Below are positions 3,442-20,600 of a stretch of 64,000 nt of DNA, piece after piece. The stretch is taken from assembly GCA_963845755.1 (NCBI GenBank), contig CAWJTV010000028.1, positions 64,001 through 128,000 of the forward strand, written 5' to 3'. The notes under the pieces were generated by a model, which was not told where the DNA came from, ran no database searches, and saw only the letters and a list, made by a program, of their open reading frames with translations. Made by a program: the position numbers and the translations under genes. The first letter of the stretch is position 1. Each line of letters opens with the position of its first letter. Source of the DNA: an uncultured Planctomycetota bacterium. Its GTDB lineage: Bacteria > Planctomycetota > Planctomycetia > Isosphaerales > Isosphaeraceae.

Positions 3442-4060
3442 TCATAAGCCCCGAACATCAAACGACGTCCACTTGCTGCGGATGCGCTCCATCCGCCGCT
3501 CGACCGACCGCTCGGTGCAGTCGAGCTGATCGGCAATCTCGCGATTGGTGTAGCCTTCCAACCGCCAGAGCGCGATCCGGCGCAGCTCGGGGTCGGCCAG
3601 CGCCTCCAGTCGGCACTCCAGCGCCTCGTTGAGCAGGGCAGCTTCCGCGGGCGAGGGGCCGGCGGCATCCATTTGCTCGAGCGCCCACTGGACCGACTCC
3701 CCTTCGTCGGAGTCCGCGAATGTGTGTTCGCGGGTGATATCCCGCTTGTGAGACATTTGCCGATTGGCCGCGTTCCGCGCCTTTCGGAGCGTGATCGTCA
3801 CGAGCAGCTTCCAGAGCGCGTCCCGGTCCGCGAGGTCGAACTCGCCCCGCTGCTGCCGCTGACAGAAGCTCTTGTACATGCTCTGGAGTACGTCCTCCTC
3901 ATCCTCGCGGCGGCGGATGCGCCGGTTCAGGTTCTTGCGCCAGCATCAGGAGGTCAGGGAAATACCGCTGCCAGATCAATCGGGCTGCCAGTTCACGCTC
4001 CGCCGCATCATCGGACTGGAGGAGCTGGATCAACCGGGTGACCGAGCCGTCGCGAACCAT
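3442..4060 (-). CDS. ECF-type RNA polymerase sigma factor, planctomycete type (frameshift near ~3938)
   Basis: Reconstructed MVRDGSVTRLIQLLQSDD...IWQRYFPDLL / KNLNRRIRRREDEEDVLQSMYKSF...LWKLLVTITLRKA...LEGYTNREIADQLDCTERSVERRMERIR (region 2 and region 4 HTH). Confidence 0.88.
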
Positions 4061-4584: not shown

Positions 4585-7500
4585 CTAATTCTGCGGAGCG
4601 CGGGCGAGCATTTGATGAAACTCGGGCAATGCCTGAAGGGGCTTCAAGTCCGGGTCCGAAGCCATCTCCGAGGCCGGGAATCCGGTCTTGAGGGCGCGGG
4701 CGAGCAGCTCCAGCGCATGGGGGAGTTGCCTGGCATCGGCGGACTTCTCTGCATAGAGGGCCACGGCGCAGCCGGCATTGTAAAGGCGCCCGGAAGTGGG
4801 ATTGGCGATGAGTCGGTCGACGTCGTCCAGGGCCGCCCGGTCGCCCAGCCGCGCCCGGACCAGGGCGCGGAGCTGGATCGCGTCGATCAGGTGAGGGTCC
4901 GAATCGAGCGCCGCGTTTAGGTGCGCGAGGGCCGATGGGAGGTCCCTTCCCCGGATCAAGAGCGCCATGCCGTAGTGGGCGGCGGCCTGTCGCGGATCCC
5001 CCTCGAGGACGCGCTCGAAGTCGCGCAGCGCTCCCTGTGGATCGGAATGAACCCGGGTCATCCCCCGCGCAACCTGGACCACTGGATCGTCCGGGTTGCG
5101 GGCGAGCAAGGCGGCGAAATCGCGTTCGGCCTCGGCCTGGCGACCGAGACGCGCGAGGGTCTCGCCGCGCGATGCCAGGACGCCCAGGTCTTTCCGGCCG
5201 AGCTCGACGGCCCGGGTCAGGTCGCGCAGAGCTTCCTCGAGCTGATTCAATTCCAGCTCGACGAGGGCCCGGTTGACCATCGCCTCCACGAATCGCGGGT
5301 CCAACTGGAGCGCGCGATCGTAGGCATTGCTGGCATCGTGCAGCCGCCCCGCTCGGGCCAGCGCCAGTCCGCGATTGAAGTGGGCCCAGGCAAAGTCCGG
5401 CCCTCGCGCGGAGCAGACCGCAAAATCGCCGGCTGCCTCGAGGTACCGCCCTTGCTTGTAGTGGCAGTGGCCCAGGATGAACCAGGTCCAGAAGGAGGTC
5501 ACGTCGAGACGGATGGCCTGTCGCAGCGCGTCCTCCGCGGCCGGCGCATCACCGGCGGCCAGCAGCGTGGTGCCGAGCAGGGTCCAGTCGTGGCAGGTCG
5601 AAGGCGCGGTCCGAGCCGCCTGGAGTCGGTCGCGATCGGCCCTGGCGGGCTCGCCGAGTGCATCGTAGTATCGCGATCGCTCGTCGAACAGCGCGGCCGG
5701 AGCCGGTCGGTCGAGGTTTTCCGCCCGATCGAGCCGGGCGATCGCTCGTTCAATCGCCCGCCGCCGATCGGCCTCCGATCCGTGTTTCTTCGCCCGGAGG
5801 ACCTGTGCCCGAGCCTCCAGCATGATGAGCTCGACGGCTTGCTGGCGCACGCGACCTTGCTCGTCTGCGGCCAGGCCGTGGATCCAGCCCGACAGGTGGG
5901 CCGGTCCATCGGCCGGCAAACCGAGGTCGATGAGGCATTCTCGGGCCTTGGCGACTCCGTCGGCGAGGTGCTCATCCGACGCACCCGCGGTATTGAGCAG
6001 GAACTGAGTCTGGGTGAAATCGCGATCGAACCTCTGGAGCTGGAATCGGACCGCGAGATTCCTCACTGCACCCATCGTGAAGACCACGGCCGTGCCCATC
6101 GCGACGAGGAGAACGAGGGAAATCAGCGCGATCGAGGTGGTGCCGCAGAGGCCGGGATGTCGCCTCGCGAACTTGCCCATACGTTCCCGATAACTCGGCT
6201 CGGGACAATGCTTCATGGGCCAGTCCTCGAGGAACCGGCGCAGGTCTTCGGCGAGATGCCGGGCACGCGCATAGCGGCGATCCGGCTGGAACTCCAGGCA
6301 CTTGGCCACCAGAGCATCCAGGCTCCAGGGGATCTGGGGACATCGCGCCCGGAGCGACGGCGCGCGTCGCCGGCTCTCGGTCAGGAAGGCAAGGGTCTCG
6401 AAGACGGTCGCACCCGATGGCGGGGCGGGAAACGGGGGCTCGCCGGCAAGCATCTCGAACAGGATGAGGCCGAGGGCATAAATGTCGGCCCGTTCGTCAA
6501 CCGATTCGGGAGAGGTCGTCCCGCGCGGGTCAAACGCGTCGAGGTGCTCGGGCGCCATGTAGGGCAGGGTGCCGCCGATCAGGGCGCGGCGGATCTCGCC
6601 CTCGGACGGCTCAGGTCGATTCTCCGCCGCCAGGTTGAAATCCAGCAACATCGGGGTGCCGTCGGCCGCCAGCAGGATGTTGGCCGGCTTGAGATCGCGG
6701 TGGAGCAACCCGCGCGAGTGGGCGTGGTCCAGCCCTTCAGCCAGGCGCGCGACGATCCAGACTGCCGCGTGGACGGCACTGGCCCGGCTCAAGAACTGGC
6801 GCGAGGGCTGGTGCTGATCGTCGTTGAGGTTGACCGAGGGTGGAACCGGACTCGCGGTCCCCGTTCCGACCAGCCGGTGAAACAGGGAGCGGAACCGGGA
6901 GACCGACCCGGAACGCTCGAGTCCTTCGGTCATCCGGCTCACCGCGTTTCCGTCCGGAGCGAACAGAAGGCCGTTTGAGATGTCCGATCGCGGTGGAGGC
7001 GTGCCCAGGATCGATCCGGTCCCCCCGCTCTGGGGCACCGGCTGGCTGAGGAGGTCCAGTGCCTCGACCAGGCTGCGACCGTGGTGATCGACCTGGTCGA
7101 GACCACCCGCGGCGTCGAGGACCTGGGCGAGGTTGGCACCGCCGAAATACGGCATGCACAGGATGCGTAGGCCGGTCTCCGGATCATCGCAGACGGAGTG
7201 GACGGGCACGATGTGGGTGTGCTGGAGACGGGCGAGGATCTGGGGTTCCGCGCCTTCCGGGCGCGAGACCTTGATGGCGACCAGCCGTTGCCCCAGGGGG
7301 ATCTCCTCGGCCAGGTAGACGCGCGCAAATGCGCCGCGACCCAGCTCCCGGAGGATCCGGAACCCCGCCAGCTCGTCTCCCGGAAGCGGGAGTCCGCCGA
7401 CGCTGCGCAACCGGCTACTTCCCTGCGCCGACTTCCGGGGTCGCACCGTCCGGGTCTCTTCGAACACCCGACCCTCGTTTGCCTCCGCCCCGCCACCATC

Positions 7501-7779
7501 TTCGCCGAGGCATCCCCCCAGCCCCATCGACGCGCCCGACCGAGATTGTTCCAGAACGAATCCGGAGTGCAACTCCACGCTTTCGTTCAAGGGAAGTTCC
7601 CGCGCGATGCCGGCCGAATGCCCGCTCGTAGGGTCCGTTGGCGGGACACCGAGAACCAGGTCTACCGAGGCGGACGATTTCGACAAGTCGAGATCGTCCG
7701 GGTCCTCGATGTTCCAACCGGCCAGCAAGTCGCGGGTCGAGTCCGGATTCGAGCGTTCCGTTCCACGGGTGTTGGACAT
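4585..7779 (-). CDS. Ser/Thr protein kinase with TM segment and C-terminal TPR repeats
   Basis: GRGAFARV, AIK, HRDLKPAN, DFNLA, GTLPYMAPE; TM IALISLVLLVAMGTAVVF; TPRs (AWAHFNRGLALARAGRLHDA...). ATG at 7779 chosen within ORF 4585..7848. Confidence 0.92.
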   Translation of the reverse strand: MSNTRGTERSNPDSTRDLLAGWNIEDPDDLDLSKSSASVDLVLGVPPTDPTSGHSAGIARELPLNESVELHSGFVLEQSRSGASMGLGGCLGEDGGGAEANEGRVFEETRTVRPRKSAQGSSRLRSVGGLPLPGDELAGFRILRELGRGAFARVYLAEEIPLGQRLVAIKVSRPEGAEPQILARLQHTHIVPVHSVCDDPETGLRILCMPYFGGANLAQVLDAAGGLDQVDHHGRSLVEALDLLSQPVPQSGGTGSILGTPPPRSDISNGLLFAPDGNAVSRMTEGLERSGSVSRFRSLFHRLVGTGTASPVPPSVNLNDDQHQPSRQFLSRASAVHAAVWIVARLAEGLDHAHSRGLLHRDLKPANILLAADGTPMLLDFNLAAENRPEPSEGEIRRALIGGTLPYMAPEHLDAFDPRGTTSPESVDERADIYALGLILFEMLAGEPPFPAPPSGATVFETLAFLTESRRRAPSLRARCPQIPWSLDALVAKCLEFQPDRRYARARHLAEDLRRFLEDWPMKHCPEPSYRERMGKFARRHPGLCGTTSIALISLVLLVAMGTAVVFTMGAVRNLAVRFQLQRFDRDFTQTQFLLNTAGASDEHLADGVAKARECLIDLGLPADGPAHLSGWIHGLAADEQGRVRQQAVELIMLEARAQVLRAKKHGSEADRRRAIERAIARLDRAENLDRPAPAALFDERSRYYDALGEPARADRDRLQAARTAPSTCHDWTLLGTTLLAAGDAPAAEDALRQAIRLDVTSFWTWFILGHCHYKQGRYLEAAGDFAVCSARGPDFAWAHFNRGLALARAGRLHDASNAYDRALQLDPRFVEAMVNRALVELELNQLEEALRDLTRAVELGRKDLGVLASRGETLARLGRQAEAERDFAALLARNPDDPVVQVARGMTRVHSDPQGALRDFERVLEGDPRQAAAHYGMALLIRGRDLPSALAHLNAALDSDPHLIDAIQLRALVRARLGDRAALDDVDRLIANPTSGRLYNAGCAVALYAEKSADARQLPHALELLARALKTGFPASEMASDPDLKPLQALPEFHQMLARAPQN

Positions 7780-8192
7780 ATTTCTCGATCGGGAATCGGG
7801 AATGAAACGGTTGCAACGAAACCGGGCGCTTTTGGGGCTCGATCCCAACCACTCCGGCGCCGACGCCGGACAAAAGGTGAGTGGCTAGGGTCGAATCCGG
7901 CTTCAGACGGCCGGTCCCAGGAGTGCCGGCGCTCGAGTGACCGCACAGAAACCACGCGCGGTTTCCAGGCGACAAACTCGAGATGCCTCGGAACTCCTCG
8001 TTCCGTTGTGGAAGGACGTGCCCGTATCTCCCTCTCGCGGAGGAAGACTCTACTTCTCTCTATGTCTCGGAACGAACTCTGTCCAGCAGATCGATGAATG
8101 TCCTGGCGATTCGCAGCGTGAGTGGCGCAGCGTCACTACGCGAATTCAATCGTGGCCTAGAATAGGGATAGGTACTCTCAAGAGGTGGGATC

Positions 8193-9350
8193 ATGCGAGT
8201 CGAGACCAGTCGGACGGCCGAAACGCAAGGCGTTGGCAGCGATTCGGGTACGATCACGGCTCCAAACCGGGGTGAAGAGAGCGAGCACGTCGTGATCGGC
8301 CGTCTCATTCGCCGACTCCGGATTTCGGACCCGCCAGATCGCTTCCAGGAACTGGCGACGACGGTATTGCGCTCGTCCCTGGGCGTGATGGCGGTGGCCT
8401 GGGTCCCCCGAGATCCCCACGAGCCGGTGATTGTCGGCGGATCGGTGGAGGGGCTGGACGCTCCGGCGTATCGGCTGGTGCCCGCGCCGACCGGCCGAGA
8501 GACGATCGTGGTTCACAACGAGATCGCGACCGGCCCATCGCGGTCGATCCACCCCAACATCGTCCGCTATGCCGCCGTCTCGGCCGGCGCGCTCGGTTGC
8601 TTGATCGCGGTCAATCCGCTCGACGACCGGCCGTTCCACCAGGACGAGGCCGAGCGCCTTCAGTATGTCGCCTCGTTGATCGAGACCCAGCTCGCCAACG
8701 CGAAGATTTATGGCGATCTCAAGGAGTTGCTTTTCGGGATCATCCGGGCCCTCACCGCCGCCATCGATGCCAAGGATCCCTACACGTCGGGCCATTCCGA
8801 GCGCGTGGCTCGGATCGCCGTCCGCCTGGCCGAGGAGCTCCGGATGCCGTCGCCGAAGCGGAGCGATCTCTATGTCGCCGGACTCCTCCACGACGTGGGC
8901 AAGATCGGCATCGAGGACGACGTCTTGAAGAAGGGCGGCCCGCTCACCCAGGACGAATTCCGCAAGATCCAATCGCACGTCGAGATCGGGGTGACGATCC
9001 TCAAGGACCTCAAGAAGCTGCACCACATCCTGCCCGGAGTCCGCCACCATCACGAGAGTTACGACGGCAACGGATACCCGGACCGCCTGGCCGGTGATTC
9101 GATCCCGTACGAGGCCCGGATCCTGGCCGTCGCCGATTCCTATGACGCGATGTCCAGCAATCGACCTTATCGCCGACGCTTGAGCCTCATGCAAATCGAC
9201 GAGATCTTCCGCAAGGGGCGTGGGCAGCAATGGGACCCCGCGGTCGTCGACGCCCTCTTCGCCTGCCGGCGCGACCTCGAGGCCATCCGGCAGAAGGGAC
9301 TGGGTGAGAGCCTCATCGGAGCGGTCAACGTCGCTCTCGGTCGAACTTGA
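8193..9350 (+). CDS. HD-GYP domain protein (probable cyclic-di-GMP phosphodiesterase) with N-terminal GAF-like region
   Basis: DPYTSGHSERVA, LLHDVGKIG, HHHESYDGNGYP, ARILAVADSYDAM, RPYR motifs. Confidence 0.92.
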   Translation: MRVETSRTAETQGVGSDSGTITAPNRGEESEHVVIGRLIRRLRISDPPDRFQELATTVLRSSLGVMAVAWVPRDPHEPVIVGGSVEGLDAPAYRLVPAPTGRETIVVHNEIATGPSRSIHPNIVRYAAVSAGALGCLIAVNPLDDRPFHQDEAERLQYVASLIETQLANAKIYGDLKELLFGIIRALTAAIDAKDPYTSGHSERVARIAVRLAEELRMPSPKRSDLYVAGLLHDVGKIGIEDDVLKKGGPLTQDEFRKIQSHVEIGVTILKDLKKLHHILPGVRHHHESYDGNGYPDRLAGDSIPYEARILAVADSYDAMSSNRPYRRRLSLMQIDEIFRKGRGQQWDPAVVDALFACRRDLEAIRQKGLGESLIGAVNVALGRT

Positions 9351-9376
9351 ATCGAACGGGAGATCGGCCCTGTGAA

Positions 9377-9852
9377 TCACTTCATCGCGCGTATAATCGG
9401 TCGGCTCGAGGAACACCGACTCCACCTGCTTGACCAGTTTCCCGTTCTTGTGGCTTTCCGCGTAGACCTTCTGCCACTCAGGGTCCTTCCCGAACGCTTC
9501 CCACGTCTTCTTGGCGGCCTCGCGACTGGGAAACGCGACCAGGTAGATCAGCTTCGCGCCCTTGCCGTCCTTCTCATCCGTGGGGGTCCAGAACCCGATT
9601 AGCTCCGCGCCGTGCTTCTTGAGCAACTGGCAGGTATGGTCGCGGAATCGCTTGTGCAGGTCGGTCAACTTGCCTTCGTTGAGGTGGTAGGTCCGAAGTT
9701 CGAAGACGCGTCTTGCGCCGGTGGAATCCTGCCCGCCGCAGCACGTGCACGCCTTTTCCTTGGCCGTCGGGGACTTGGCGGGATTTGTCGTCGGCACGAG
9801 CCGGCACCATGCAAGCCACCAGCACTAAGCCCGTCATCATGTGGCGAATCAT
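9377..9852 (-). CDS. Secreted NIPSNAP family protein (frameshifts near ~9780 and ~9388)
   Basis: Signal peptide MIRHMMTGLVLVACMVPARA; core VFELRTYHLNEGKLTDLHKRFRDHT...HGAELIGFWTP...LIYLVAFPSREAAKKTWEAFGKDPEW...VFLEPTDY; ATG AAG TGA ending in the shifted frame. Confidence 0.85.
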
Positions 9853-10079
9853 GGGTGCGATGCTCCGTGTGATTGTGTCGGCAGTTTGACCAAGAACCGA
9901 TCTCGTTTCGGTTATAACGCCTCGTGAGATGCTGCTCAAGCGCCGGGTAATTCGTAGGGATAACGGGATGACGTCACTAAACCCATACACTCTGACACGC
10001 GGCTCCCGTGGATTTCGGTTCTCGAAGTCATGCAGTTGGCGAGGGCTGGTCGAGTTCGACGACCGAGAGCTGCGAAGAT

Positions 10080-11536
10080 TTACTCTCTCGAATCCCGCAT
10101 CGACTCGTCGTTTGGTTGTCCAGGACGGAGGGGCCGGGAGCGCGGATTGCGTGACTCGCCGAAGATTCTGACCAGCGCCAGCGTTTTATCTTGGAGAGCG
10201 GGCGCGTTTCCATGATCTCAACGAGGTCACCGTAACGCGATAGGTTCCGCTCGTCATGAGCGTAGCAGATCGTCCGCCTCCGGATCATCTTGCCGTACTT
10301 CGGGTGAGGCTCGATTCCCACGACCTCGACCCGGCGCGTCTTGTCCATCTTCGCGCTGGTGACGAGCCCCTGGAGGACGCGACGCGGCTTGCGGCCGCGG
10401 GCGGGCGATTCCCGATTCGCGTCGGGGAAGCCGGGGATTTCGGGAAACGGCGTGAGTGGTTCGTGCTCCGTTGCTTTTTGAGGCGGAAGCCGCGGCGCGA
10501 GGTCGTGGTCCGGCTCGGAGAGGGCCAGCTTGAAGGAGGAGTAGTCGAGGCGGTTGGCGATGGTCCGCAGACGATCGCGGAATTCGGTGGCACGCTCCAG
10601 GTTACCGCACACAATCCGGTCTTTCGCCCTGACGACGCGTGCCATCGACGCCGATTCGATGAATTCGTTCAAGCGGGAATAGAGGATCGAAAACCCTTCC
10701 GTGAAGAGCGGTCCCTCCAGCCTCTCGACTCTCAAGAACTGGGCGAGGGCCTCCGGCCGTCTTGATCTCCGGGCGAGGTTCTCGCCGAAGATGATCGCCG
10801 CGTCCGGGAATTCGGGGAATCGCGCCGCGAACGACTCAGCCCACGGGTTGACGCGGTTGTTGGCACCGAGGCTCAAGAGGCCATAACCGCCGGCCGCGAC
10901 GGCAATCGAGTCGTCAAGGTCCCGGAACAGTGCGAGATTCTCGGCCTGGATCAGCAGTTGATCCGCCTCCTCCAATTGACCCGACTTCAAGTACCGAAAC
11001 GCCATGCCGGCCGAGAGCGACTCGCGAGCGAGAGACGCGAGCGAGGAGGATGAAGACGAGGAGTCGCCTCGGGCGAATGACGGGTCTGCGCGACCGAGGG
11101 GTTCGGAGGTCGCAAGTACCGAGAAATCGACGAGGCATTCCGCCTCGTGTTGGATCTTGCACGTCTTCGAGTACGCCTGGCCACCAGGCGGCCTGCTGGA
11201 GATGACGTAGTAGCCTGGTTGCAGGTCGAGCCGCCTGGAACCGATGACCCAGATCGAGGACGACTGGGCGTGGTCCCGGATCTGGATCGGGAATGGGCAC
11301 TCCTCGGCCCTGATCCAGAGCCGACCGGTCCCGCTCGCCGGTCGCTTTTTCGCGGCGGGGTCACGAGCAGGTTCGGGACCGGGGACATCCGCGGGAATGC
11401 CCAGCTCGTCCTCGATCCAATTGCTCAGGATGTCGGGGCCATCAGCAGGCTCTGGCCCGGCAACCTCCGCGGGCATGTCCGCCTCGTCCTCCTCTTCCTC
11501 CTCCTCTTCCTCCTCGATCCAGCCACTCATGCCCAT
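10080..11536 (-). CDS. Multidomain protein: acidic repeat N-terminus, probable beta-sandwich, helical/TPR-like domain, C-terminal ribosomal protein uS17-like domain
   Basis: ORF 10028..11536; C-terminal RRVLQGLVTSAKMDKTRRVEV...HPKYGKMIRRRTICYAHDERN..YGDLVEIMETRPLSKIKRWR is unmistakably uS17; a 1-nt shift near 10173 restores RWRLVRI and a stop at 10080. GAGGT SD upstream of the ATG. Confidence 0.8.
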
Positions 11537-11549
11537 TAGCGACCTCGAA

Positions 11550-12890
11550 TCACTCGAAGGGGACGAAGTGCAGGGTTTCGTTGCAATCCTTATCGGCCTC
11601 GATTGGGAGATAGATTTCCGTGTGGGGTGGGTCGGACGACGCCGAGTCAGCCGTGAACTTCAACCGGCATACGCCCGAGGGCGCGGAGGCCACCGGAAGG
11701 TACGGGGCCAGCTCTTTCTTCTGGTCGGCGGTCAGCGAGCTCACCGCGCCGTCGACGTCGAAACTCAGCGTGTAGGGTCCCGGCTGGACCGTGGAATCGT
11801 ATGGGTTGGCGGGGAGTGGGCTATCCAGGACGCTCTTCTTGTGTTTTAGGTTTCTCAACTTCGCATGGGCCACACGGATCACGAGAGTGGGGTCGATTTC
11901 GAGATGGAAGGGGATCTGGGGCGGACGGCTCGTATAGTGAAAGTTCGTCTTGAATAAGCACTTGGAAGTGTCGGCTTGGACGTACTGGACCTTCTTTTTG
12001 TAGTTCGCGATGTCCAGGGTCCTCCGCTGGAGCGGCTCGACGAGGTCCTTAACCGCAACGCTCCACCCATGAATGCCGTGTTCTCGAAGTGCGAACCGTC
12101 CCAGGCATTCCAGCAAGGCACGGCTGAACACCGTCCCAAACTCATCTCCTGTCTCGTAAGCCGGATCTCCATCGCGCGTGCTGTAGATCGTGCATCGATT
12201 GATGGGGTCGCGATACGTCTTCGACTCGTACACAATGATAGGGCGGCCACCCAGGACGTCAGGATTCTTGTACTTGGAGGGGATCGGCTCCGTCTTGCAA
12301 GCGTTGACGAACACAAACTGTTTGCGGGCGTCGGCGTAATCGAGGGCCTCGTGAATATTCCGAAGATCGAGAGAGCCGTCGAGGCACCGTTTCGTTTCGG
12401 CGAAGTCTTCCAGCAACACGCGAGTGATCTGGTGTCCATCGAGGATTCCGTGGCCGCTCACGTAGAGAATCGCAACATCGCGCGAGCGTCGGTTGCAATC
12501 GTCATACCAGGCTAACACGGTGCGCTCCACCTCTGGGAAAGTCGCGCGTTGAATCGTGCCAGTTTTGTCGTCGAAGTCCTCTTTCGCAAGGCCCAGGTTG
12601 ACCATCTCCTTCGGGGTCGGAGACAGGAGCAATCGGATGGAGGCCAGAGGGACAACCGGTTCCTCGCGGCGATCCAAGGACTCCTTGAGATACTCCTTGC
12701 GGAGCCAATCCGCGAATCGATAGGCGCCCGTGGCCGTCGAGGTGAGTTCATCGAGTCCGAAGGTCTCGTTCTTCGGATGATCTGGCGTGTCGCGGAGGTA
12801 GGGATAGTGGCTCGACCCAACGATGAGGGCGTGCGTCGCGCTCCCCTTCGAGCTCCGGTCGGGATTCCTGAACCACACCGCTTCGTTCAT
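11550..12890 (-). CDS. Caspase-like (peptidase C14/metacaspase-type) protease with C-terminal beta-rich domain
   Basis: THALIVGSSHYP start, LYVSGHG (His ~12451), FVFVNACK (Cys ~12298), TVFSRALLECL late helix. Confidence 0.85.
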   Translation of the reverse strand: MNEAVWFRNPDRSSKGSATHALIVGSSHYPYLRDTPDHPKNETFGLDELTSTATGAYRFADWLRKEYLKESLDRREEPVVPLASIRLLLSPTPKEMVNLGLAKEDFDDKTGTIQRATFPEVERTVLAWYDDCNRRSRDVAILYVSGHGILDGHQITRVLLEDFAETKRCLDGSLDLRNIHEALDYADARKQFVFVNACKTEPIPSKYKNPDVLGGRPIIVYESKTYRDPINRCTIYSTRDGDPAYETGDEFGTVFSRALLECLGRFALREHGIHGWSVAVKDLVEPLQRRTLDIANYKKKVQYVQADTSKCLFKTNFHYTSRPPQIPFHLEIDPTLVIRVAHAKLRNLKHKKSVLDSPLPANPYDSTVQPGPYTLSFDVDGAVSSLTADQKKELAPYLPVASAPSGVCRLKFTADSASSDPPHTEIYLPIEADKDCNETLHFVPFE

Positions 12891-14281
12891 TCTGCTTTCT
12901 CCCGCAGCTCATCGGCGATCTTCTCGTAGAAGAACGACTCCGTGAAGTAGGCGGAGTGTGCCTTCAGGATGTCGTTCCGGCCCGGCATCCGGATGTCCGT
13001 GACCGCCTCGTTACCGAAGACGGGCTGAGCCTGGTATGAGAAGAGGTCGGCCTGGTCGTAGAAGTTGAGCCACTTCTGGACCTTCGCGGGCTTGAGCAGG
13101 AATCCGGCGGTGGGCTCGGCATTCTTGCGATAGACGGCCATCTCCGCGAAGAGCGAGACCTGGGCGCCGGCCATTACCCAGAGTCGGACGGAGATATCGC
13201 TGAGGTCGCTCGAGGTGAGAAGGTCGTAGAAGATCGCACTGCCGAAGGAGTGCGTCACGACCACGAGCGGTTCATTGTTTTTCTCGGCGACCTGCGCGGC
13301 GGCCTGGATGCCCTTGGCGGCGCGGTCGGCGATTGGTCCAAGTTTCTCACCGGTGCTCTGCCCGCGCCGGAGGTACTCGAACACGTCGCCGAAGAAGAGC
13401 ATCGCGCCGGGCCCCACCTCGTTGCGCAGCCAGGGGGCAAGTCGTGGATCGGAGGGGTTCAGGAGCGCCCCCGCTGAGTAGAGCCGGGCGCGGAATGCCC
13501 CCGCGCCGGCCTTCTCGGCAATATATCTCGCAGCCCCTACGGTGGCGTCCTTCAGCGCGTGCAGTCTCTCGGAGGCCTCCTTGATGATCTCCTTTGCTCC
13601 CATCTCGTCGTACGGCTTGCCATCGGCGACCGCTCCGGCGGATTCCTCATACGTGTTTAACTCGTCCACGATGGCCTGATCGATGGCGTCGAGGGCGGCT
13701 TTCCCTGTCTTCGACGTCTTCAACTTTGCGAGGAACTCGGGCCGTTGCGCCACGGCATCGGCGGCGATCAGCAGAAGGGCGCTGACCTGGCCCTTCTGCT
13801 CAGCAGCTTGCCGATCGTCCACCTTCATGTCCTTCGTCTCGGCGACGGTCCGCAAGTCCGGTTCGAAGCGACATCGCTCGGGGGCCACCACGGCCCGGAT
13901 CAAGTCCACGGGGGCTTCTCGGGCCGCCTTGAGTACGACCTGATCGTGTGTCTCCGGTAATGTCTCCGGGTCCGGCTCGGTTCCGTCCTTCGACAGGATC
14001 GAGATCAACTCGAAGAGTGCGGCAGCGGGATCGGTCGTTTCGACGTGGCCCGTTGCTCCCATTGCCTTGGCTTTCTCCAGGCCGAACATCGAGGAGAGAT
14101 CCCAGCGAAAGCGGACACCCAGATCACCCCAATAAAGGTCCTCCAGGACATCGAAGTTTGGATAGCGGGGCTTGGTCACGGGGAGCACGTACTGCTCGAA
14201 CATCTTCCTCCGCGCCTTGCCGCTAGCGAAGTAAACCTCGTCCTTGCGGACGCTCACTCCGTGGATGAATAAGATTGGCAT
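12887..14281 (-). CDS. Alpha/beta-hydrolase fold protein (lipase/esterase-like) with large helical insertion
   Basis: ILFIHGV oxyanion strand, YWGDLG, FFGDVFEYL, VVVTHSFGS nucleophile elbow (Ser ~13248), WLNFYDQADLFSY, AHSAYF; GGAGGT SD; ATGA overlap with the caspase gene. Confidence 0.85.
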   Translation of the reverse strand: MPILFIHGVSVRKDEVYFASGKARRKMFEQYVLPVTKPRYPNFDVLEDLYWGDLGVRFRWDLSSMFGLEKAKAMGATGHVETTDPAAALFELISILSKDGTEPDPETLPETHDQVVLKAAREAPVDLIRAVVAPERCRFEPDLRTVAETKDMKVDDRQAAEQKGQVSALLLIAADAVAQRPEFLAKLKTSKTGKAALDAIDQAIVDELNTYEESAGAVADGKPYDEMGAKEIIKEASERLHALKDATVGAARYIAEKAGAGAFRARLYSAGALLNPSDPRLAPWLRNEVGPGAMLFFGDVFEYLRRGQSTGEKLGPIADRAAKGIQAAAQVAEKNNEPLVVVTHSFGSAIFYDLLTSSDLSDISVRLWVMAGAQVSLFAEMAVYRKNAEPTAGFLLKPAKVQKWLNFYDQADLFSYQAQPVFGNEAVTDIRMPGRNDILKAHSAYFTESFFYEKIADELREKAE

Positions 14282-14625
14282 TGTCGGGCACCTCCAGCGA
14301 ATGCCTCAAGGTGGGCAGGCAAGGCCGGCCTGCACTCAACTGACCTGGCACGCGTCGGCGACATCGCCTGTCCATTTGTATGGGCGTCTGGCGTATTCAC
14401 CGCCGAGCGCCGATCGCCCCACCCTTCATCTGTCAGAATGGACGATAATTGAACCGGATTCAAGAGGCCTCTCCAACTGCGCAGCGAGATCCCGAGCGCA
14501 CCGACGCCTTGAGCATTGCGGAGCGCTTCCGCCATGCAGCGACCGTCGTGGTTCCCTGGTGTCGATTCACCGGCTGGTCCATCCGATGGCCCTCGGACCA
14601 GCCGGGCGAATCACTCCGACCCCGT

Positions 14626-17600
14626 TCAACGGAACCCACCAGCCGCGGCACCATTCCGATTGCCGGCCGGTTGATCGAACCGTTGCTGGAGCCGCTGGAT
14701 CTGCTTCAAGTTATTGGTCGAGTTCTGCATGCGGAGATTGGCATCGAGGGATTCATCCGCTTTGGCTGAAGCATTGGGCATGGTCTGTCCCTGCCCTGGT
14801 TGCTGAGCCGGCACTTGATTCTGACCCTGCAGCGATTGGCCGACGTAGCTCGTGCCGCGGTAGAAGGCGTATTGATTCGACCCTCGGCGCGCGACGGCCG
14901 TGACGACTCCGCGCACTCCTTCGGCCACGAAGATGCCCCGAAGGTCGGTCTCGCCCGAGAGGAACTGGGGATTATCGCTCCCGATGACTTTCACCTGGAC
15001 TTTCGGCAGGAGGTCCTTGGTCGATGCATCGCGGACCGTCACACGAACTCGGCCGGCGCCCGAGTCTTCGAGTACCTCGAGTTCGATCGGTGAGACCAGG
15101 ACGATCCCGGATGCGTAGAGACTCTCGCCGCGAAGCATGACGAGATACGCCGCCGTCCTTGGTCAAGGGAAGGTCGATTGCCTTGGCCTTGTCACCATAG
15201 TCGGCTCCATTGCCGAGGGTCACGGCTTTCTCGACCAGCGGCGTGATGCCCGCGAGGTCAATGCCGGCGATCCCGTTCAAGTTGCGGCGGGTGAGGTAGA
15301 GCTGCATCAGGTTGACGGGATAGGCTTTCACGTCCACCTGGGCGATATTGCGATAATCCAGGGCGATGCCCGGCGAAGGGCCCGGATCGGGGGCTCGATC
15401 GGCGGCGACCGCCGCACCCCTGAGGCTGGCGACAAGGACGCCGCGGACGGGGGTTGCGGGTTCGGTCCGCTCGGCGACCGCGGGACGGACCGCGGACCGG
15501 ACGACGGAGACCTCGGGAAGCTTCAGGTCCTTGCGGGTGTACGAGGTGATGGCGCCCGCCGCGTCGGTGAAGCGGTCGGCAACCTGCCGGTAGTATTCCA
15601 GCGCCTTGGCCGGCTGACGGCGCGCATCGTAGATCTGGCCAAGGATATAGAGGGCCTGCCACTTGTTCGGGCTGGGTTGCTCGGCACCCGCGGCGTCCTT
15701 GTAAGTCGCCCTGGCGATGGTGCCGGCCACCTCGACCGCGCGGTCATAATGGCCGAGATGGAAGTCGCCCAACGCCTCGCTGTACTGGAAGCTGTCGAGG
15801 TACGTGCTCTTGGGATAAACCGTGGCGAACCGGCCGGCCAGGCGGACCACCGACTTGAAGTCTTCCAGCTCGATGAACGCGCCGACCAGGGCCAGGCTGG
15901 CCTCGTCGGCCATGGGGTTCCTGGGCGATTGCGCGAGGAAGACCTGGATCATTCGAATGGATTGCACCAGCAACTCCGAGCGAGTGATCCCGGCGGCGGC
16001 CAGCTCGCGACGGAGATTGGGCTCGGTGATCGCACGTGACGCCGCCTGGGTCAGGACCTGGGAGAGTCCGAAGAAATCGCTCTCGATTGACGCCGTGTTC
16101 GGATAGGACCGCCACAGGTCGATCAGATAGGCCATCCCCTCGAGCGTCTTTCCCCGCTGGCGCAGCAGCTCGCCCACCCGAACATCCTCCAGGTAGCTGG
16201 CCTCGATCAGCCCGCGCCAGACGATCATGGCGCGCTCGAATTCCTTGATGTCCCGATAGGCGGTGCCGATCGCCAGCAACTGGTCGAAGCTGAGGAACAG
16301 CTCGGGGGATTTCTCCTTGACTACCTCGAAATACTGGACGATCTTGCGTGGCTGGCCCGCGCGGATGCTGATCAAGAGGAGCATCCGGGCCGCGTCCTTC
16401 GCGATGTCATCGCGGAGGGTATAGCCACCATAAAGCGACTCGAGGGCATCGCCGGCCTCGGCGAACCGTCCGGCGTCGAAGTGCGCCTTGCCTCGAGCAT
16501 ATAACTCGTCGGGCGTCGGCTTGTAGGGATCGGTGCTCGCTTGGCCGGGAGACCGGACACGCAGCTCGCCGGGCTGGCCGATGTGATAGTGCCCCGGCTC
16601 GTAGGCACTGCGCACCGAGGCGGGCAGGCGCGGTACGTGCCGGGAAGATACCCGTAAAGGTCGTAGGTGGTTGTCCCGGGGTTGACATCGGGCGGGAAGT
16701 AGAGGGTCAGCACGCCGTCGGCCAGCTCGAAGGAGGAAGCCGATGTATTCACGGAACCCTCGATCAAGGTCGTGCCGGCAGGCAAGTGTTCCTGCACCAC
16801 GAGGTAGTCGCGCTCCCACTCGGGAACGTTCCAGGGGATGTTCCGGAATGCGGTGACGGCAATCTGGGCTCTTCCGCCCACACCGACCTGGCTGGCGATG
16901 TTCTCGAATGTGTTGGGATTGACCGCGACCCCGAAGCCGACCGGCAAGACCTTGCCATCGAGCTCCGGCGGCGCTGGATAATAGACGCGGCGATCGATCC
17001 ACGCCACACGGCCGTTGCGATCCTGGTCGGGAGCGAATTCACGAGTAAATCCGGCGAGCGTGACGGCATATCCGAACTCGCCGCGGCCTTCCATCTCGAA
17101 TCGGATGCGGTTGGGCTTTCCGACCTCCAGGTTGGTGCGTGGGACGGCGACGACCTTTTCCTGGGCGGTTCCCAGCACGTCGATCACCGTGAGCGGCTTG
17201 TCATTGACGGTCACAGTCAGGCGATAACGATCCTCGGCGCCCTCGGCGCGGCCGTAATACGTCGCCAGCGCGGTGAGTGCCGGCCCCTTGGCCTTGTGGG
17301 GGAGCCACCCATTCGCGACACGGTGAGCCTGGAGCCAGTCGATGCTCCGGTCCATCTCGTTGGCCTGGGGGCGGACCCGGGCGTAAGCCAGGCTGACGAG
17401 GGCCGTCGTTTCGGCGGTACCACGGACCATCGGAGATCGGCCGGGGGCTTCCCAGTAGATCCGGGGCCTCAGGCCGGGCGCGACGGTTTCCGTCTTGGCA
17501 CGCGGTCCCAGGATGTCCAGCAGCTCGCCGGCCATCGAGGCACGGTCCAGGTTGGCGAAGGTCAACGCCAGGTACGCCAGGGCCGGGCTCGACAGGTTGT

Positions 17601-20600
17601 TCCGGAGCCGGTTCAAGCTGTTGGCCGCCTCGAAGCTGGCCGCGCGTCGCGTGCTCAAGGCGTGCAGCAACGCGGCACGGGTCTCGAGATCGCTGCCGTT
17701 GACCCGGGCGAATTCCTGCTTGAGATAAGTCAGCGCCTGGTCGAGCACCTTGGGATCGGTCAAGAGTCCCAGCGGCTCGGCCGAGGCCAGCGCCAGACGA
17801 CCGCCGCGGAGGACAGCCGGTCGCTCTGTAGCGACTGATCCGGTCGATTCACGATCGAGAGCGGCGGAGGGGCGGCCACCCACGGCCAACCGCCGTCGGG
17901 ATTCTGGGCCGCGATCAATTCGGCGACCAATCCCTGGATCCGTTCGGTCAGGCGCTGGGCTTCCGGTGCTGCAGTGGCGCGGGCATCGTGGAGATAGCGC
18001 AAGACCGAGGTCGCCCCCACCAGGTCCGCGGCACGATCCGCCGTGGTGTTGCTCGGCGGCGGGATGACCCGCGCCGTGGCGTTCAAGCTGTGCTCATCGA
18101 TGTTGATCAGGAGCTGATAGAGATTGGCGTCGCGTCCTAACGCCATCTCGATCAACATTCGGCGAATCGTCGGAGAGAGCGCAATCAGCATGTCGGGATT
18201 TTCATACGTCCGACCCGCCGGCAGTCCGACGAAGACGGTCGTGCTCTCGCGGCCGGTCCCCGATGCCGAGGCGTAAACCGGCATGCCCCAGGGATGGATC
18301 GGGACCTCGACGACCAGCTCATCCTTCAGGTCGCCGACGGCGCCGGTGAGGGTCAATCGAAGCGTATCACCATCGGGCACTTCATACGGTTCGAACAGGA
18401 CCTCGTCGATTCCGTCGCCCTTGAGTTCGAGCATCCTGGGAAACACGTCGTCGCGGCCACCGGCGTAAGTCGCCAGGCGCAGCGCGAGCTGGCCCTTGAC
18501 GCCCGTATGGTGGACTTGCGCGATGAAACGCGGCTTGTCCCCCTGAGTCAGCGCGGTGGGAACCTTCAAGTCAACGAAGAAGTCCTGGCGGACCGTCAGG
18601 GACGATGTGGTTTGCCCGGCCAGGGTGTCGGCGCCGGTGATGCCTCGCGCCGTGATCCGGTACTCGGAGAGTGCATTGGGGGCCTGGAACGTGACCCGCG
18701 CCTTGCCGTCCTTGCCGGTGACAACAGCCGGGTTCCAGTAGGCCGATTCCACGTATCGCTCGCGCGGGGATCGAGGATCGTCCGGTTTCTGGACGGCGAA
18801 GGTGGAGCGACGCCCTTGCGAGCGATCCCGGGAAAGATCATTGAAGTTTCTCGCAAATTGGACCCCAGCGAGTTTCTGCGCTCTGATTGTCACCCAGGCC
18901 TTCTTGATCGACGGCGAGAGGAACGCTCTTTGTCGCATCCTCACCGCTCATGGCCCTGCCGCCGACCCCGCCGCCCATTCCTCCCATCATGCCCATGCGC
19001 GGGTGCAGGCGAATTTCCAGGAACCGGAGCAGCCTCGGCGGGCGTCGGCGCAGGGGCTAGGGGCGCTGGGGCGACCTCATTGAAGAACCCCTGTCTCCCG
19101 CCCGCAGCGAAGTACTGCCGTCGTGCGCCCGCATTGGCCACCCTGGCTTGCTCACGCGCTGATTCCTCGACAACCGCCTGTGACACACCGACTGTGTCCG
19201 GCCGATAAGCGAACGTGTTCGTCGCCTCGGTGGAGAAGGATCCGGTACGGGTCTGGCTGTAGAAGAACGGACCGATCTCCGGGAGCCGGTCGTGGAAGAG
19301 GCGCAGGAGCGACTGGTCGACCATCGCGATCGAGAGCTCGGCCGAGACGGGCTGGCCGAGCTGGTCGGCGGCCGTGATGTCCAGCTCGACCGGCTCGCCC
19401 GGCCTCACGACCGCCCTGGCTGGCTTGACGGTGACGCGGAGGTCGCGCACGACCTCGATGTCGAGCCTCGCTTGATCGCACTCGTTATGCCACATTCGCG
19501 TCGAGGTCAGCGTGAAGTTGGGGAACTGGGCGCCGTCGATCGGCCAGGCGAGCGGGTTATCACCGTCCTTGAGAGTCACGATGCGGTAGGAGAGGATGCG
19601 GTCGGCCTCCCAGGTCAGGAGCGCCGTGCCGGACCGCCCGCGGCTGTGCAGGTTGACGCGCGCCTCCTCACCCACCTTGTAGCTTTGACGGTCGGTCAGG
19701 AGCCGCAGCTTGGTCTCGTCCTCCTTGCCGGAGATGAAGATCAATCGATCGGCGACGATCGGGGTGCCGAACCGGTCGGTCCCCGCGACGCGGAGGATGT
19801 AATGGCCTCCCTCGGAATCGTCGGAGCGGAAGGTCAGAGAGCCGCGGCCGGTCTTGGGGTCGGTCGCAATGGTCTTGCTCGTGACGTCGCGCTCGGTGGT
19901 GCGTCCGTCGACGTTGACCTGCTTGATCAACGTGGCCGAGAGGGACTCGCCGATCGGGCTGCCCTGGGCGTCTGTCGTGACGATCTGGAGCAGGAACGAT
20001 TCGCCGTCGAGGTAAACGCCGCGGGGCGTGCTCACGCTGATCTCGAATCCGCGGATTGCAAGCCGCACGTGGGCCTCGGCGGCCACGTTATCCTGCGGCA
20101 GCCGGGCGGTGAGGTGCAAGGTTTGCTCCTCGGCGAATCCCTCGGTCGAGAATTCGACGTGATACTTACCCACCGCGTCGGTCGTGCCGTGCAGTGTGCG
20201 GCCGTCGGGGAGGCCGATCTCGATCGGCCGAGATGACAGCGGTGCGCCGTATTGATAGCGAGCGACGAGGTCAACCTGGACCGTCTCGCCGCGGTAGACC
20301 ACACTCTGCTTCACGTCGAAGGTCAGGTCGATCGGTTCGAGCTGGTACGACTGGACCTCGAAGCTCCCCGAGAAGACGCTCTTGCCCGGCTGCGATACCG
20401 TGACGCGGTAACTGCCCAGCGGGGCGGCCGTGTCGAGCGGAAGCGTTTCGTGGAACGTCCCGTATTCCGAGAGGGTGATCGACCGGGCCACGATTATCCG
20501 GCCGCGGCTGTCGGCGACCTCGAACCGATAGACGGCCTTCGGCATATTGGCATACTGGCTGTTCCGGATCTCCCGCACGACGCCGCGGACCGAGACTTTC

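Follow-up and report, generated by a model that had tools for sequence, protein, structure and literature searches.

Analysis of the window, the whole 64,000-nucleotide stretch of planctomycete DNA considered here, revealed a three-gene cassette on its minus strand that, judging from comparison with loci of many phyla, is one copy of a widespread bacterial cassette and not an orphan. We consider it fairly probable that the cassette is a protease-gated cell-death module of the alpha/beta-hydrolase plus caspase type, in its common three-gene form. The first-pass annotation had known of no described system with this uS17-bearing architecture. The hydrolase-caspase core is not new, however, since the passages cited here show the pairing predicted in 2020 (Kaur, Burroughs, Iyer and Aravind, PMC7159879) and this type of protease-triggered cell death first demonstrated experimentally in 2025 (PMC12642450). 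The unusual feature of the present copy is the spare ribosomal protein S17 at the end of its partner protein.

Organization and conservation of the cassette

The three open reading frames and the segment that holds them are as follows.

12887-14281, minus strand: gene 1, alpha/beta-hydrolase ORF of 464 aa, lipase-like putative zymogen effector
11550-12890, minus strand: gene 2, caspase-like cysteine protease ORF of 446 aa
10028-11536, minus strand: gene 3, ORF of 502 aa, Y4kD-like partner fused to a uS17 paralogue
9943-14625, no strand: indel; in G401, a genome of the same genus, about 110 bp stand in its place

The co-directional and tightly coupled arrangement proposed earlier is borne out by the sequence. 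Genes 1 and 2 overlap in an ATGA at 12887-12890, a GAGGT lies within the 13-nt gap upstream of the gene 3 ATG at 11536, and a GGAGGT stands 7 nt upstream of the gene 1 ATG at 14281. Promoter and terminator scans gave no result above chance, and no signal peptide was evident in the three proteins when their N-termini were inspected by eye. The lower G+C content ascribed to the cassette stands relative to the right flank and fails relative to the left: in 1-kb windows the values are 0.58-0.64 over 10001-14500 (lowest, 0.58, at 11501-12500) against 0.64-0.67 in the right flank, while the left flank is similarly low (0.61-0.63 over 7501-10000).

The flanking genes had been described as unrelated to the cassette, and comparison with G401 makes this sharper than claimed. 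The flanks are collinear in that genome at 78-82% identity (query 2049-3943 and 8627-12867 with G401 C2 1762538-1764444 and 1758177-1762428), and the junction alignment shows about 110 bp in place of the cassette. No terminal repeats were seen by eye at the indel boundaries. The absence of the cassette from this site in G401, together with the failure to find the N-terminal part of gene 3 among 400 other genomes of the phylum, suggests that the cassette is mobile.

Using hydrolase patterns alone, we collected 160 loci, whose record titles name Acidobacteriota, Pseudomonadota, Actinomycetota, Cyanobacteria, Planctomycetota, Chloroflexota and others. Where at least 1300 bp were available downstream of the hydrolase (137 loci), the next ORF encodes a caspase in 135; where at least 2700 bp were available (118 loci), a gene-3-like ORF comes after the caspase in 99. 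Three Mesorhizobium loci scored as gene 3 misses gave weak matches (E about 1e-8) under relaxed settings. At a fourth Mesorhizobium miss (L121), an ORF of the same size and in the same place as gene 3 was observed. The neighborhood search called for in the first pass thus found the order and orientation of the triad kept across many phyla. Clustering of 1431 neighboring ORFs yielded no other conserved neighbor, with no further family in more than 17 loci; the largest other cluster (17 loci) is antisense to the hydrolase.

The hydrolase and the caspase

Gene 1 matched no Pfam, NCBIfam or PADLOC family, and 51 homologues were found. The following positions in genes 1 and 2 are relevant to catalysis and putative cleavage.

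14057-14071, minus strand: candidate protease site 1, residues 71-75 A-K-A-M-G, at the family motif position
13598-13612, minus strand: candidate protease site 2, residues 224-228 Y-D-E-M-G, family motif at the second insert edge
13247-13249, minus strand: codon of the nucleophile Ser345 (T-H-S-F-G), with H344, S345 and G347 invariant in 39 sequences
12450-12452, minus strand: gene 2 catalytic His147, invariant in 75 sequences
12297-12299, minus strand: gene 2 catalytic Cys198, invariant in 75 sequences

The Ser-Asp-His set recognized in the first pass is invariant across 39 homologues (H344, S345, G347, D412 and H442), and D409 and the N-terminal H7-G8 come close to invariance. In the AF2 model (pLDDT 85.5, pTM 0.88), Ser345 sits between strand 340-344 and helix 346-357, and a helical insert separates the N-terminal strand from the catalytic core. 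Minimal lipases, B. subtilis LipA among them, came up as weak Foldseek matches, with a best E of 7.6e-3 and a target TM of about 0.5.

Alignment of 139 hydrolases revealed that the insert is variable (91-154 residues) and flanked at both edges by a repeated motif (V/F/I/L, E/Q, A/S/T, L/F/M, G). The glycine is present in 125 of the 139 sequences at site 1 and 135 at site 2, and the residue preceding it at site 1 is L, F or M in 137. Both sites of the window's hydrolase fit this motif poorly: site 1 retains only M-G, with a PSSM score of 6.8 against a family median of 12.5, and site 2 scores below 6 against the same median value. The two motif loops are low-confidence stretches within an otherwise confident model, with pLDDT below 50 for residues 70-82 and of 64-70 for residues 211-230.

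Gene 2 matches Pfam PF00656 (Peptidase_C14, E 3.5e-8) over about residues 20-285, followed by a C-terminal domain, and scores 33 bits against NCBIfam caspase_w_EACC1, below the cut-off of 140. Its His-Cys dyad, previously read as intact, is conserved without exception, H147, G148 and C198 being invariant in 75 sequences.

A precedent for such a pair is LcHydrolase-LcCaspase of Lysobacter capsici AZ78 (Evans et al., bioRxiv 2025.11.14.688446 = PMC12642450), which according to the sections cited here also consists of an adjacent alpha/beta-hydrolase and caspase-like protease, spread widely across phyla. LcHydrolase proved to be a zymogen that LcCaspase cleaves twice, and its N- and C-terminal fragments together poison E. 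coli. LcHydrolase, whose closest folds are likewise lipases, has an internal piece between two sites with Gly at P1'. However, its size is about 33 kDa and its cuts fall at Arg73 and Arg117, each followed by Gly, whereas the window's hydrolase, which is likened to it by description, is 51 kDa and belongs to a family with L/F/M at P1, where none of the 139 sequences has Arg at site 1. In the systems described in these sections the sensors are fused to the protease, whereas here a Y4kD-like protein is encoded by a separate third gene.

The partner protein and its C-terminal slot

Gene 3 can be divided into five parts.

11339-11536, minus strand: acidic head, residues 1-66, probably disordered
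11117-11329, minus strand: beta-strand-rich N-terminal domain, residues 70-140, from AF2 strands
10469-11065, minus strand: TPR-like helical core, residues 158-356, HMM match of 115 bits
10175-10384, minus strand: uS17 domain, residues 385-454, Pfam and NCBIfam matches
10028-10174, minus strand: 48-residue tail after K-R-W-R-W, and stop codon, from frames read in the sequence

Precomputed Pfam assignments for gene 3 are PF27295 (Y4kD_C in the atlas output) and PF00366. The core HMM was built from 118 locus ORFs, and the gene 3 profile matches at least 3228 representative proteins. The core is predicted with pLDDT above 90 over about residues 180-340 and resembles TPR proteins with Z of 10-12.8, values that helical repeats may reach by shared arrangement or chance. 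The AF2 strands of the N-terminal domain (70-76, 82-87, 94-98, 109-113 and 133-139) are of low to middling confidence.

The complex model of the caspase with residues 60-350 of gene 3 scored 0.75 (0.72, 0.75 and 0.80 in individual runs), compared to 0.00 for the best of three controls; of the 157 solved complexes in the benchmark 116 came up to this mark, as did 2 of the 215 mismatched pairs, counts that hold only roughly because our own alignments were used for the model. The runs share at least 77% of their contacts, with a partner pLDDT of at least 74. The modeled caspase contacts include 150-156 and 202-205, just past His147 and Cys198, and residues 87-127 of gene 3 lie within the predicted interface. 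The model suggests that the gene 3 core binds the caspase. In loci devoid of gene 3, the caspase often bears TPR or NB-ARC/STAND plus TPR sensor parts (L094, L106, L109 and L118), which fits a sensor-like role of gene 3.

The ribosomal-protein end of gene 3 was confirmed by Pfam Ribosomal_S17 at residues 390-454 (84 bits, cut-off 25.9), with 86.6 bits for both NCBIfam NF004123 (cut-off 74) and TIGR03635 (cut-off 88.7). This OB-fold domain keeps nearly all conserved S17 positions, with 69% identity over 70 columns to the canonical uS17 (rpsQ) of the same genome and 67-73% to other S17s. The canonical gene is found on contig C33, flanked by the genes for L29 and L14 within the S10 operon. The gene 3 copy is a paralogue outside that operon; it follows 384 residues of a different protein, and an unrelated tail takes the place of its final strand. 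Canonical S17 proteins end in ...KRWRIVRIV and ...KHWRLVRIL; the other frame of gene 3 continues with an S17-like V-R-I-F, so that a one-base frame change has removed the last strand, and the domain may therefore be decaying. The tail itself has pLDDT below 50 and no predicted structure.

Three further proteins bear on the origin of the fusion. P0066 (ENA, 260 aa) shares 71% identity with gene 3 across 51% of the gene 3 length and has the same tail, and its S17 part reads as frame-shifted several times, by decay or assembly error. In P0002 (500 aa) and the partial P0055, a gene 3 core 38-39% identical to that of the window is joined to an S17 with a normal end, P0002 matching the core profile with an hhalign probability of 97.6%. 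With at least two diverged relatives besides gene 3, the S17 fusion is, as far as these proteins indicate, not a one-off. We regard it as unlikely that the S17 end is a functionless accident, in which a duplicated rpsQ read through from gene 3 is decaying and the module works without it. The deleted strand, the unstructured tail and the apparent renewed frame-shifting in P0066 are what such an accident would leave; moreover, in about half of the family little or nothing follows the core (fewer than 30 residues in 46 of 107 third ORFs), and the fused S17s have longer branches than canonical ones (0.29-0.92 versus 0.09-0.32) in a tree that is unresolved. However, the S17 positions are well conserved, two S17 matches occur in only 4 of 401 genomes of the phylum (this genome included), and P0002 and P0055, given their divergent cores and normal S17 ends, suggest that the fusion was kept through long divergence.

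Tabulating the C-terminal domains of gene 3 homologues, as proposed in the first pass, revealed a variable slot with many different fillings. Domains were scanned in 91 relatives (41 plus 50 representatives). Fillings elsewhere include EF-G domains III-V, Hsp70, RNA polymerase alpha-CTD, proteases, a RES domain and others, and the relative in L134 (Mycolicibacterium peregrinum) carries an almost complete Hsp70 at its end (818 bits). S17 is one filling of this slot, not a defining trait of the system. Some fillings are of classical effector type, namely RES, Trypsin_2 (4), CHAT and nucleotide cyclase domains among the 50 representatives, to which glycosyltransferase and polyphosphate kinase, found behind a CATASP domain, can be added. 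They raise the alternative, to which we give little credence, that the slot is an effector position and that the active caspase frees or exposes the tethered S17, or its counterparts in other loci, to serve as a second toxin; an extra or shortened S17, or a piece of EF-G, could obstruct the decoding site or the assembly of ribosomes. The passages cited here also report glycosyltransferases 'in the effector position' of caspase-dependent ternary systems (Kaur et al. 2021, PMC8195603) and OB-fold RNA-binding domains among effector-side domains (Kaur et al. 2020, PMC7159879). Nevertheless, a motif scan found no family-type cut site in gene 3, linker included, gene 1 already provides a dedicated effector, the window's S17 lacks its last strand, and many fillings bind rather than poison (pentapeptide repeats, Ig-like domains, RNA polymerase alpha-CTD, histone fold and RAMA).

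Related systems and proposed mechanism

As described in the cited parts of PMC7159879, the MoxR-vWA (VMAP) ternary systems share with the cassette a caspase with a neighboring alpha/beta-hydrolase gene and a variable-domain grammar. However, the window and related loci contain no MoxR, vWA or VMAP gene, and the third component here is a TPR-like Y4kD-family protein. CATRA, characterized here from one passage of PMC8195603 and Pfam names, likewise has three parts, depends on a caspase and can hold a glycosyltransferase in its variable effector position, and CATASP ('CATRA-associated small protein') occurs as a fusion with two actinobacterial gene 3 relatives (L116 and L166). In contrast, gene 3 itself has no CATASP, CATRA-C (PF20270) has no match in this genome, and no CATRA families were found in the 91 scanned relatives. 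In PMC8195603 the CATRA system is credited to Kaur et al. 2020 as well as Burroughs and Aravind 2020.

The DnaK-fused EACC1-protease modules (PMC12642450) likewise combine a death module of caspase type with a duplicated housekeeping protein, a likeness that extends to the Hsp70 end in L134. However, their effector EACC1 is a pore former, the chaperone is fused to the protease and not to a separate partner, and no ribosomal protein is mentioned, the word 'ribosomal' being absent from that text. The integrated decoys of plant NLRs (RRS1-WRKY) would be comparable only if S17 were a host-protein copy targeted by invaders; the decoy idea was also proposed for the bacterial bNACHT11, which, in the passage cited, has no recognizable host domain (PMC11702601).

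The defence identity presumed in the first pass drew no known system for the cassette from PADLOC, the sole match being a weak caspase (E 7.7e-4), and the parallels with gasdermins, Craspase and CBASS lipases hold as analogies only. The lack of a PADLOC system and of a direct tie between the family and phages would also suit a role in the cell's own physiology, such as regulated proteolysis or lipid remodeling in stress, development or ribosome quality control, in which case gene 3 would direct the protease to ribosomes. The S17, EF-G and Hsp70 fusions all point to the translation and folding machinery, and stress responses were raised for the DnaK-fused protease modules in the cited part of Evans et al. 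(PMC12642450). We nonetheless rate this role as very unlikely: the patchy cross-phylum distribution, variable flanks and absence from the sister species are typical of accessory conflict genes, and the zymogen design together with the toxic LcHydrolase fragments fits cell death better than housekeeping.

Taken together, the conserved triad, the duplicated motif, the LcHydrolase precedent and the caspase/gene 3 model favor the logic of zymogen, switch and sensor put forward in the first pass, whose parts on defence, cleavage, toxicity and S17 stay conditional; the trigger, cut sites, substrate, defence role and S17 function are what we infer. In the favored cell-death mechanism, gene 1 would encode an inactive lipase-like hydrolase whose catalytic core is interrupted by the variable helical insert, bounded by two exposed loops with a common short motif ending in (L/F/M)-G. 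The caspase would be kept in complex with gene 3, acting as a regulator or sensor subunit. Upon a trigger, it would cleave the hydrolase in both loops and the insert would be set free or rearranged, allowing the activated enzyme to attack an ester-type substrate, possibly a lipid, and the cell to be killed or arrested. The slot-borne S17 would most likely be the input or address of the sensor, either binding ribosomal RNA or ribosome-assembly intermediates or being bound or modified by a factor of the invader, and the cassette would probably serve in anti-phage or other conflict.

The hydrolase–caspase–partner cassette and its setting

Genes 1, 2 and 3 lie head to tail on the same strand of the window:

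12887-14281, minus strand: gene 1, alpha/beta-hydrolase, ORF of 464 aa
11550-12890, minus strand: gene 2, caspase-like protease, ORF of 446 aa
10028-11536, minus strand: gene 3, Y4kD-like partner fused to uS17, ORF of 502 aa

The three-gene arrangement noticed in the first-pass annotation was recovered in full, with its ORFs, couplings, catalytic residues and S17 domain. A GGAGGT Shine-Dalgarno sequence stands 7 nt ahead of the first ATG of gene 1, genes 1 and 2 overlap by ATGA, and a 13-nt spacer with GAGGT precedes gene 3. The lower G+C content claimed for the cassette is indeed observed (0.58-0.64 in 1-kb windows), but the left flank is low as well, so that the drop is weak evidence taken alone. 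Promoter and terminator scans of the cassette gave nothing beyond chance level. No anti-phage system model of PADLOC-DB v2.0.0 was matched by the cassette; genes 1 and 3 had no match at all, and gene 2 had a single weak one to a generic caspase model (E 7.7e-4).

Conservation of the triad was analyzed on loci fetched with hydrolase-alignment patterns only. Searches with these patterns confirmed 209 metagenome and 226 genome loci, from each of which the 80 best-scoring were taken; the ORFs of this subset are stop-to-stop reading frames rather than gene calls. HMMs built from gene 2 and from residues 1-384 of gene 3 matched 156 and 119 locus ORFs, respectively. The next ORF downstream of the hydrolase is a caspase in 135 of the 137 loci that offer 1300 bp or more of room. 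Of the 118 loci offering 2700 bp or more, 99 have a gene-3-like ORF behind the caspase. Three of the 19 misses, all from Mesorhizobium (L119, L136, L140), give a weak gene 3 match at relaxed settings, another (L121) has an ORF with the size and place of gene 3, and in four others the caspase itself is fused to TPR or NB-ARC/STAND+TPR (L094, L106, L109, L118). Clustering of 1431 neighboring ORFs yielded no additional conserved family, the next cluster being an antisense ORF over the hydrolase in 17 loci. The hydrolase and caspase genes are adjacent, co-directional and kept as a pair, and the cassette is a conserved, self-contained triad. S17 occurs in none of the fetched loci.

In this organism the cassette is accessory. 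In G401, a genome of the same genus, the flanks are collinear with the window at 78-82% identity, and the segment corresponding to about 9943-14625 is replaced by about 110 bp. Gene 1 gave weak partial matches only, in 4 of 100 relatives searched, and no match in G401; the N-terminal part of gene 3 had no match in 400 other genomes of the phylum. The surroundings of the cassette comprise the following features:

14626-22909, minus strand: alpha-2-macroglobulin-like region of several end-overlapping ORFs
18941-22909 (1322 aa), 17760-18944, 16372-17889, 14972-17002 and 14626-15138, minus strand: the macroglobulin-like ORFs
8178-9797, minus strand: mostly spurious ORF, whose upstream part (about 9400-9797, minus strand) is a NIPSNAP-like gene
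8193-9350, plus strand: looks by eye like a GAF and HD-GYP protein (H-D-V-G-K and H-H-E-S-Y-D-G-N-G-Y-P motifs)
4585-7848, minus strand: Ser/Thr protein kinase of 1087 aa that has a single membrane span and a long TPR region and is 78% identical to the collinear stretch of G401

Since the stretch of G401 that matches the macroglobulin-like region has ORFs of similar size, the splitting of the latter is no sign of errors in the assembly and looks like a genuine gene structure or an old break common to both genomes.

Gene 1 as a candidate zymogen of the gene 2 caspase

Gene 2 carries a Peptidase_C14 caspase domain (Pfam, E 3.5e-8), in which H147, G148 and C198 are invariant among 75 sequences. 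Gene 1 has no Pfam, NCBIfam or PADLOC family match; its 51 homologues, retrieved by a word-indexed search, are mostly full length. In 39 aligned members of the gene 1 family, H344, S345, G347, D412 and H442 are invariant, with D409 and the N-terminal H7-G8 close to invariant. Both the Ser-Asp-His set of the hydrolase and the His-Cys dyad of the caspase are intact in sequence. The AF2 model of gene 1 (pLDDT 85.5, pTM 0.88) places Ser345 between a strand and a helix in the fashion of alpha/beta-hydrolases. Foldseek returned weak matches only (best E 7.6e-3), to minimal lipases, a DDHD phospholipase domain and an acyl-protein thioesterase, and searching the PDB sequences with the hydrolase profile gave nothing below E 0.29.

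Aligning 139 hydrolases revealed a variable insert of 91-154 residues with the same short motif at either edge. The motif of candidate site 1, which ends at G75, reads V/F/I/L, E/Q (114/139), A/S/T, L/F/M (137/139) and G (125/139); at candidate site 2, which ends at G228, E/Q, L/F/M and G are found in 124, 128 and 135 of the 139 sequences. The residue preceding the glycine is L (76), F (56), M (5), Q (1) or D (1) at G75 and mainly L (67), F (50), M (11), Q (6) or Y (4) at G228. Compared to the rest of the hydrolase, the insert is richer in Glu (8.1% versus 4.5%) and in Ala. It is modeled as a helical bundle, with residues 70-82 below a pLDDT of 50 and the second candidate site in a confidence dip. 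Gene 1 looks like a zymogen that would be cut twice, at the two candidate sites flanking the insert. The window's own copy keeps M-G at both, the rest fitting the motif poorly by PSSM. A bacterial gasdermin is reportedly cut after a Leu by a caspase-like protease, so a hydrophobic P1 residue would not be unprecedented.

The same motif was searched for in the other two proteins. In the gene 2 caspase, residues 40-46 (K-N-E-T-F-G-L) form a motif-like site with a score of 10.5, which is suggestive, although chance alone would give about 0.1 hits of this kind at this protein length; gene 3 contains none scoring 6 or more. Six caspase ORFs of other loci (L046, L056, L071, L138, L143, L156) bear a hydrolase-type motif about 283 residues in, such as E-V-Q-T-L-G-G, which hints at self-processing of the caspase in those lineages. 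Likewise, eight third ORFs (L017, L019, L027, L035, L037, L096, L113, L126) have the motif about 50 residues before the core end (Q-I-E-A-L-G-A, PSSM 12.5-15.8), a hint that the partner may be cut in those lineages. The window's copy has neither the core-end motif in gene 3 nor the motif near residue 283 in the caspase.

Pairs of this kind have been described. According to Kaur et al. (2020, PMC7159879), the caspase domain of their ternary systems always occurs with a neighboring alpha/beta-hydrolase gene, and Evans et al. (2025, PMC12642450) count the alpha/beta-hydrolase among the most abundant protease-linked effectors. In the latter study, LcHydrolase of Lysobacter capsici AZ78, whose substrate is given as unknown, is cut by its partner LcCaspase at Arg73 and Arg117. 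As far as the Lysobacter pair is described there, the present family differs from it in a larger hydrolase, in a pre-Gly residue that is never Arg and in a separate third gene. Arg precedes Gly at neither site in any of the 139 hydrolases, so that the Arg-Gly scissile motif reported for LcHydrolase homologues is absent from these sites. The first-pass annotation had cast gene 3 as sensor or adaptor, gene 2 as switch and gene 1 as lipase-like zymogen effector; this logic is the best-supported reading, but its hydrolase–caspase core is already a known kind. What is new is the predicted seat of the Y4kD-like partner on the caspase, the duplicated hydrolase motif with its hydrophobic residue before Gly, and a variable partner slot, filled here by uS17.

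The partner core and its variable C-terminal slot

The precomputed annotation of the window's protein assigns gene 3 to Y4kD_C (Pfam PF27295), a family also present in 96-99% of the members of the nearest atlas clusters (score 0.90). Its conserved core, residues 158-356, consists of stacked helices with pLDDT above 90 in the AF2 model, and is preceded by an acidic head and by a beta-rich domain (70-140) that is modeled with less certainty. The head (residues 1-66; 11339-11536, minus strand) has no predicted structure and includes nine consecutive Glu inside a longer acidic stretch; the motif W-I-E-(E/D)-E occurs twice in the head. Structure searches with the core retrieved TPR proteins (Z 10-12.8), a similarity in which helical repeats may share only a common arrangement. 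A profile built from 75 cores and searched against 1.84 billion representative proteins (50% identity) matches at least 3228 of them at E ≤0.001 and 1021 at E ≤1e-30; among the best 150 of the 3228, the core mostly starts at around residue 100-150.

We modeled the complex of the caspase with residues 60-350 of gene 3. The model scores 0.75, compared to 0.00 for the best of three controls, and lies over the tool's mark. In the calibration of this mark, 116 of 157 solved complexes passed, as did 2 of 215 mismatched pairs, counts that are only rough for runs with our own alignments. The runs share at least 77% of contacts, with a partner pLDDT of at least 74, and the predicted interface takes in the caspase residues directly after the catalytic His and Cys. 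The modeling supports the predicted binding of gene 3 to the protease. Gene 3 also stands at the place where other versions have built-in sensors. The literature searched contained no relevant paper on y4kD and described no role for the usual third gene of the hydrolase–caspase pair.

Past the core, 46 of 107 third ORFs end within 30 residues and 30 of 107 run for at least 100 residues. A Pfam scan of 41 of the 107 found 11 with recognizable C-terminal domains.

Table. Domains in the C-terminal slot of third ORFs, with their loci.
EF-G domains III, IV and C: L082
Hsp70, near full-length: L134
Formaldehyde-activating enzyme: L072
Pentapeptide repeats: L100
DUF4407: L104, L160
Leucine carboxyl methyltransferase: L133
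Ig-like domains: L024
TPR: L155
CATASP, then glycosyltransferase: L116
CATASP, then polyphosphate kinase: L166

A second scan covered the 50 longest extensions among the best 150 of the 3228 representatives. Pfam matches were obtained for 21: RNA polymerase alpha-CTD (3), histone fold, HC2, RAMA (6, only 1 above the Pfam cut-off), RES, Trypsin_2 (4), CHAT, nucleotide cyclase, pentapeptide repeats and others. Judging from the domains found in these third ORFs and representatives, the slot is taken by binding domains in some proteins, by host-machinery copies in others and by effector domains of classical type in still others, S17 being one rare filling.

The L116 fusion resembles CATRA, a caspase-dependent ternary conflict system for which PMC8195603 describes glycosyltransferases in the effector position. 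CATASP, a CATRA-associated small protein, is present in 2 of 41 gene 3 relatives scanned, and searching the CATASP-like segments of L116 and L166 against all locus ORFs found only these two. Gene 3 has no CATRA or CATASP match at E ≤0.1, no CATRA family matched any of 91 gene 3 relatives scanned, and CATRA-C (PF20270) gave 0 matches in the window's own genome, although it matched none of the 14 control genomes either. Since neither CATRA-C nor the CATRA families matched in these scans, the cassette is not placed in CATRA.

The uS17 end of gene 3

S17 is recognized at the end of gene 3 by Pfam PF00366 (residues 390-454, 84 bits, cut-off 25.9) and NF004123 (385-454, 86.6 bits, cut-off 74), while TIGR03635, at 86.6 bits, stays slightly below its cut-off of 88.7. 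The genome (14.27 Mb, 49 contigs, 87.9% complete) contains two S17 matches, a situation seen in 4 of 401 genomes of the phylum, this one included, so that second copies are rare. The canonical gene (108 aa) lies on contig C33 in the L29-L14 interval, next to the S3, L16 and L24 genes. The window's S17 is a spare copy, 69% identical to the canonical one over 70 columns and retaining nearly all conserved S17 positions. Compared with a stand-alone S17 (about 80-110 aa, S10 operon, complete C-terminal strand), it is fused and has a frame-shifted end. After K-R-W-R the gene 3 frame reads W-S-E-S-S and then a 48-residue tail; an alternative frame reads on as V-R-I-F, resembling the canonical I-V-R-I-V, and a one-base frame change would therefore have removed the last S17 strand.

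This frame change is probably real, since the same odd tail is present in P0066, an ENA protein of 260 aa with 71% identity to gene 3 along half of its length. Poor assembly quality as its cause was rejected on this ground and on that of the split macroglobulin-like ORFs, which have like-sized counterparts in G401. The S17 part of P0066 appears frame-shifted several further times, which could be decay or assembly noise. Three DNA runs of one study contain small parts of the window, and no RNA run containing it was listed. The four pieces aligned are identical to the window, but none lies over the S17 part, so that they bear neither on the frame change nor on expression.

An assembly error might also have joined an unrelated gene to a separate S17 gene. 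This was rejected in view of P0002 (500 aa) and of P0055 (partial, 249 aa, on a 2.2-kb contig), in which a like N-terminal protein, 38-39% identical to gene 3, is fused to an S17 with a normal end. Residues 133-376 of P0002 align to a core profile built without it with an hhalign probability of 97.6%. In the homologue search with alignment A2, S17 words dominated and mostly ordinary S17 proteins were returned. The S17 tree, with 0 starred branches, was unresolved and did not tell one fusion event from several. Two other S17 fusions were observed. P0003 (376 aa, JGI metagenome) has an N-terminal S17 followed by about 280 residues without a listed family and unrelated to the gene 3 core, and P0064 (247 aa, ENA) joins ribosomal L29 and S17 (PF00831 and PF00366) in one predicted protein, either a read-through of adjoining S10-operon genes or a gene-calling artefact. 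No paper in the literature searched combined 'ribosomal protein S17', 'caspase-like' and 'phage defense'.

The S17 end may serve as input (bait or ribosome tether), as output, or be a decaying passenger. A bolder and rather unlikely reading is that the slot contains integrated decoys, host-machinery copies which invaders would bind or modify (uS17, EF-G III-V, Hsp70, RNA polymerase alpha-CTD), in parallel with the decoy strategy of plant NLRs. What the cassette guards in this organism would then be the small ribosomal subunit: an invader factor that seizes or modifies S17 would act on the bait and release the caspase from the TPR-like core, and the hydrolase would be switched on. If so, a bacterial death module would reveal a decoy strategy in its sequence, and the slot domains would together list the host proteins attacked by phages, naming the targets of unknown phage factors; if not, this is an accessory death module of ordinary type whose appendage is decaying. 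The hydrolase–caspase pair is among the commonest protease–effector modules, and its S17 version offers a concrete, testable handle on triggering, through the binders of the S17 end and the ribosome or a phage factor as the signal.
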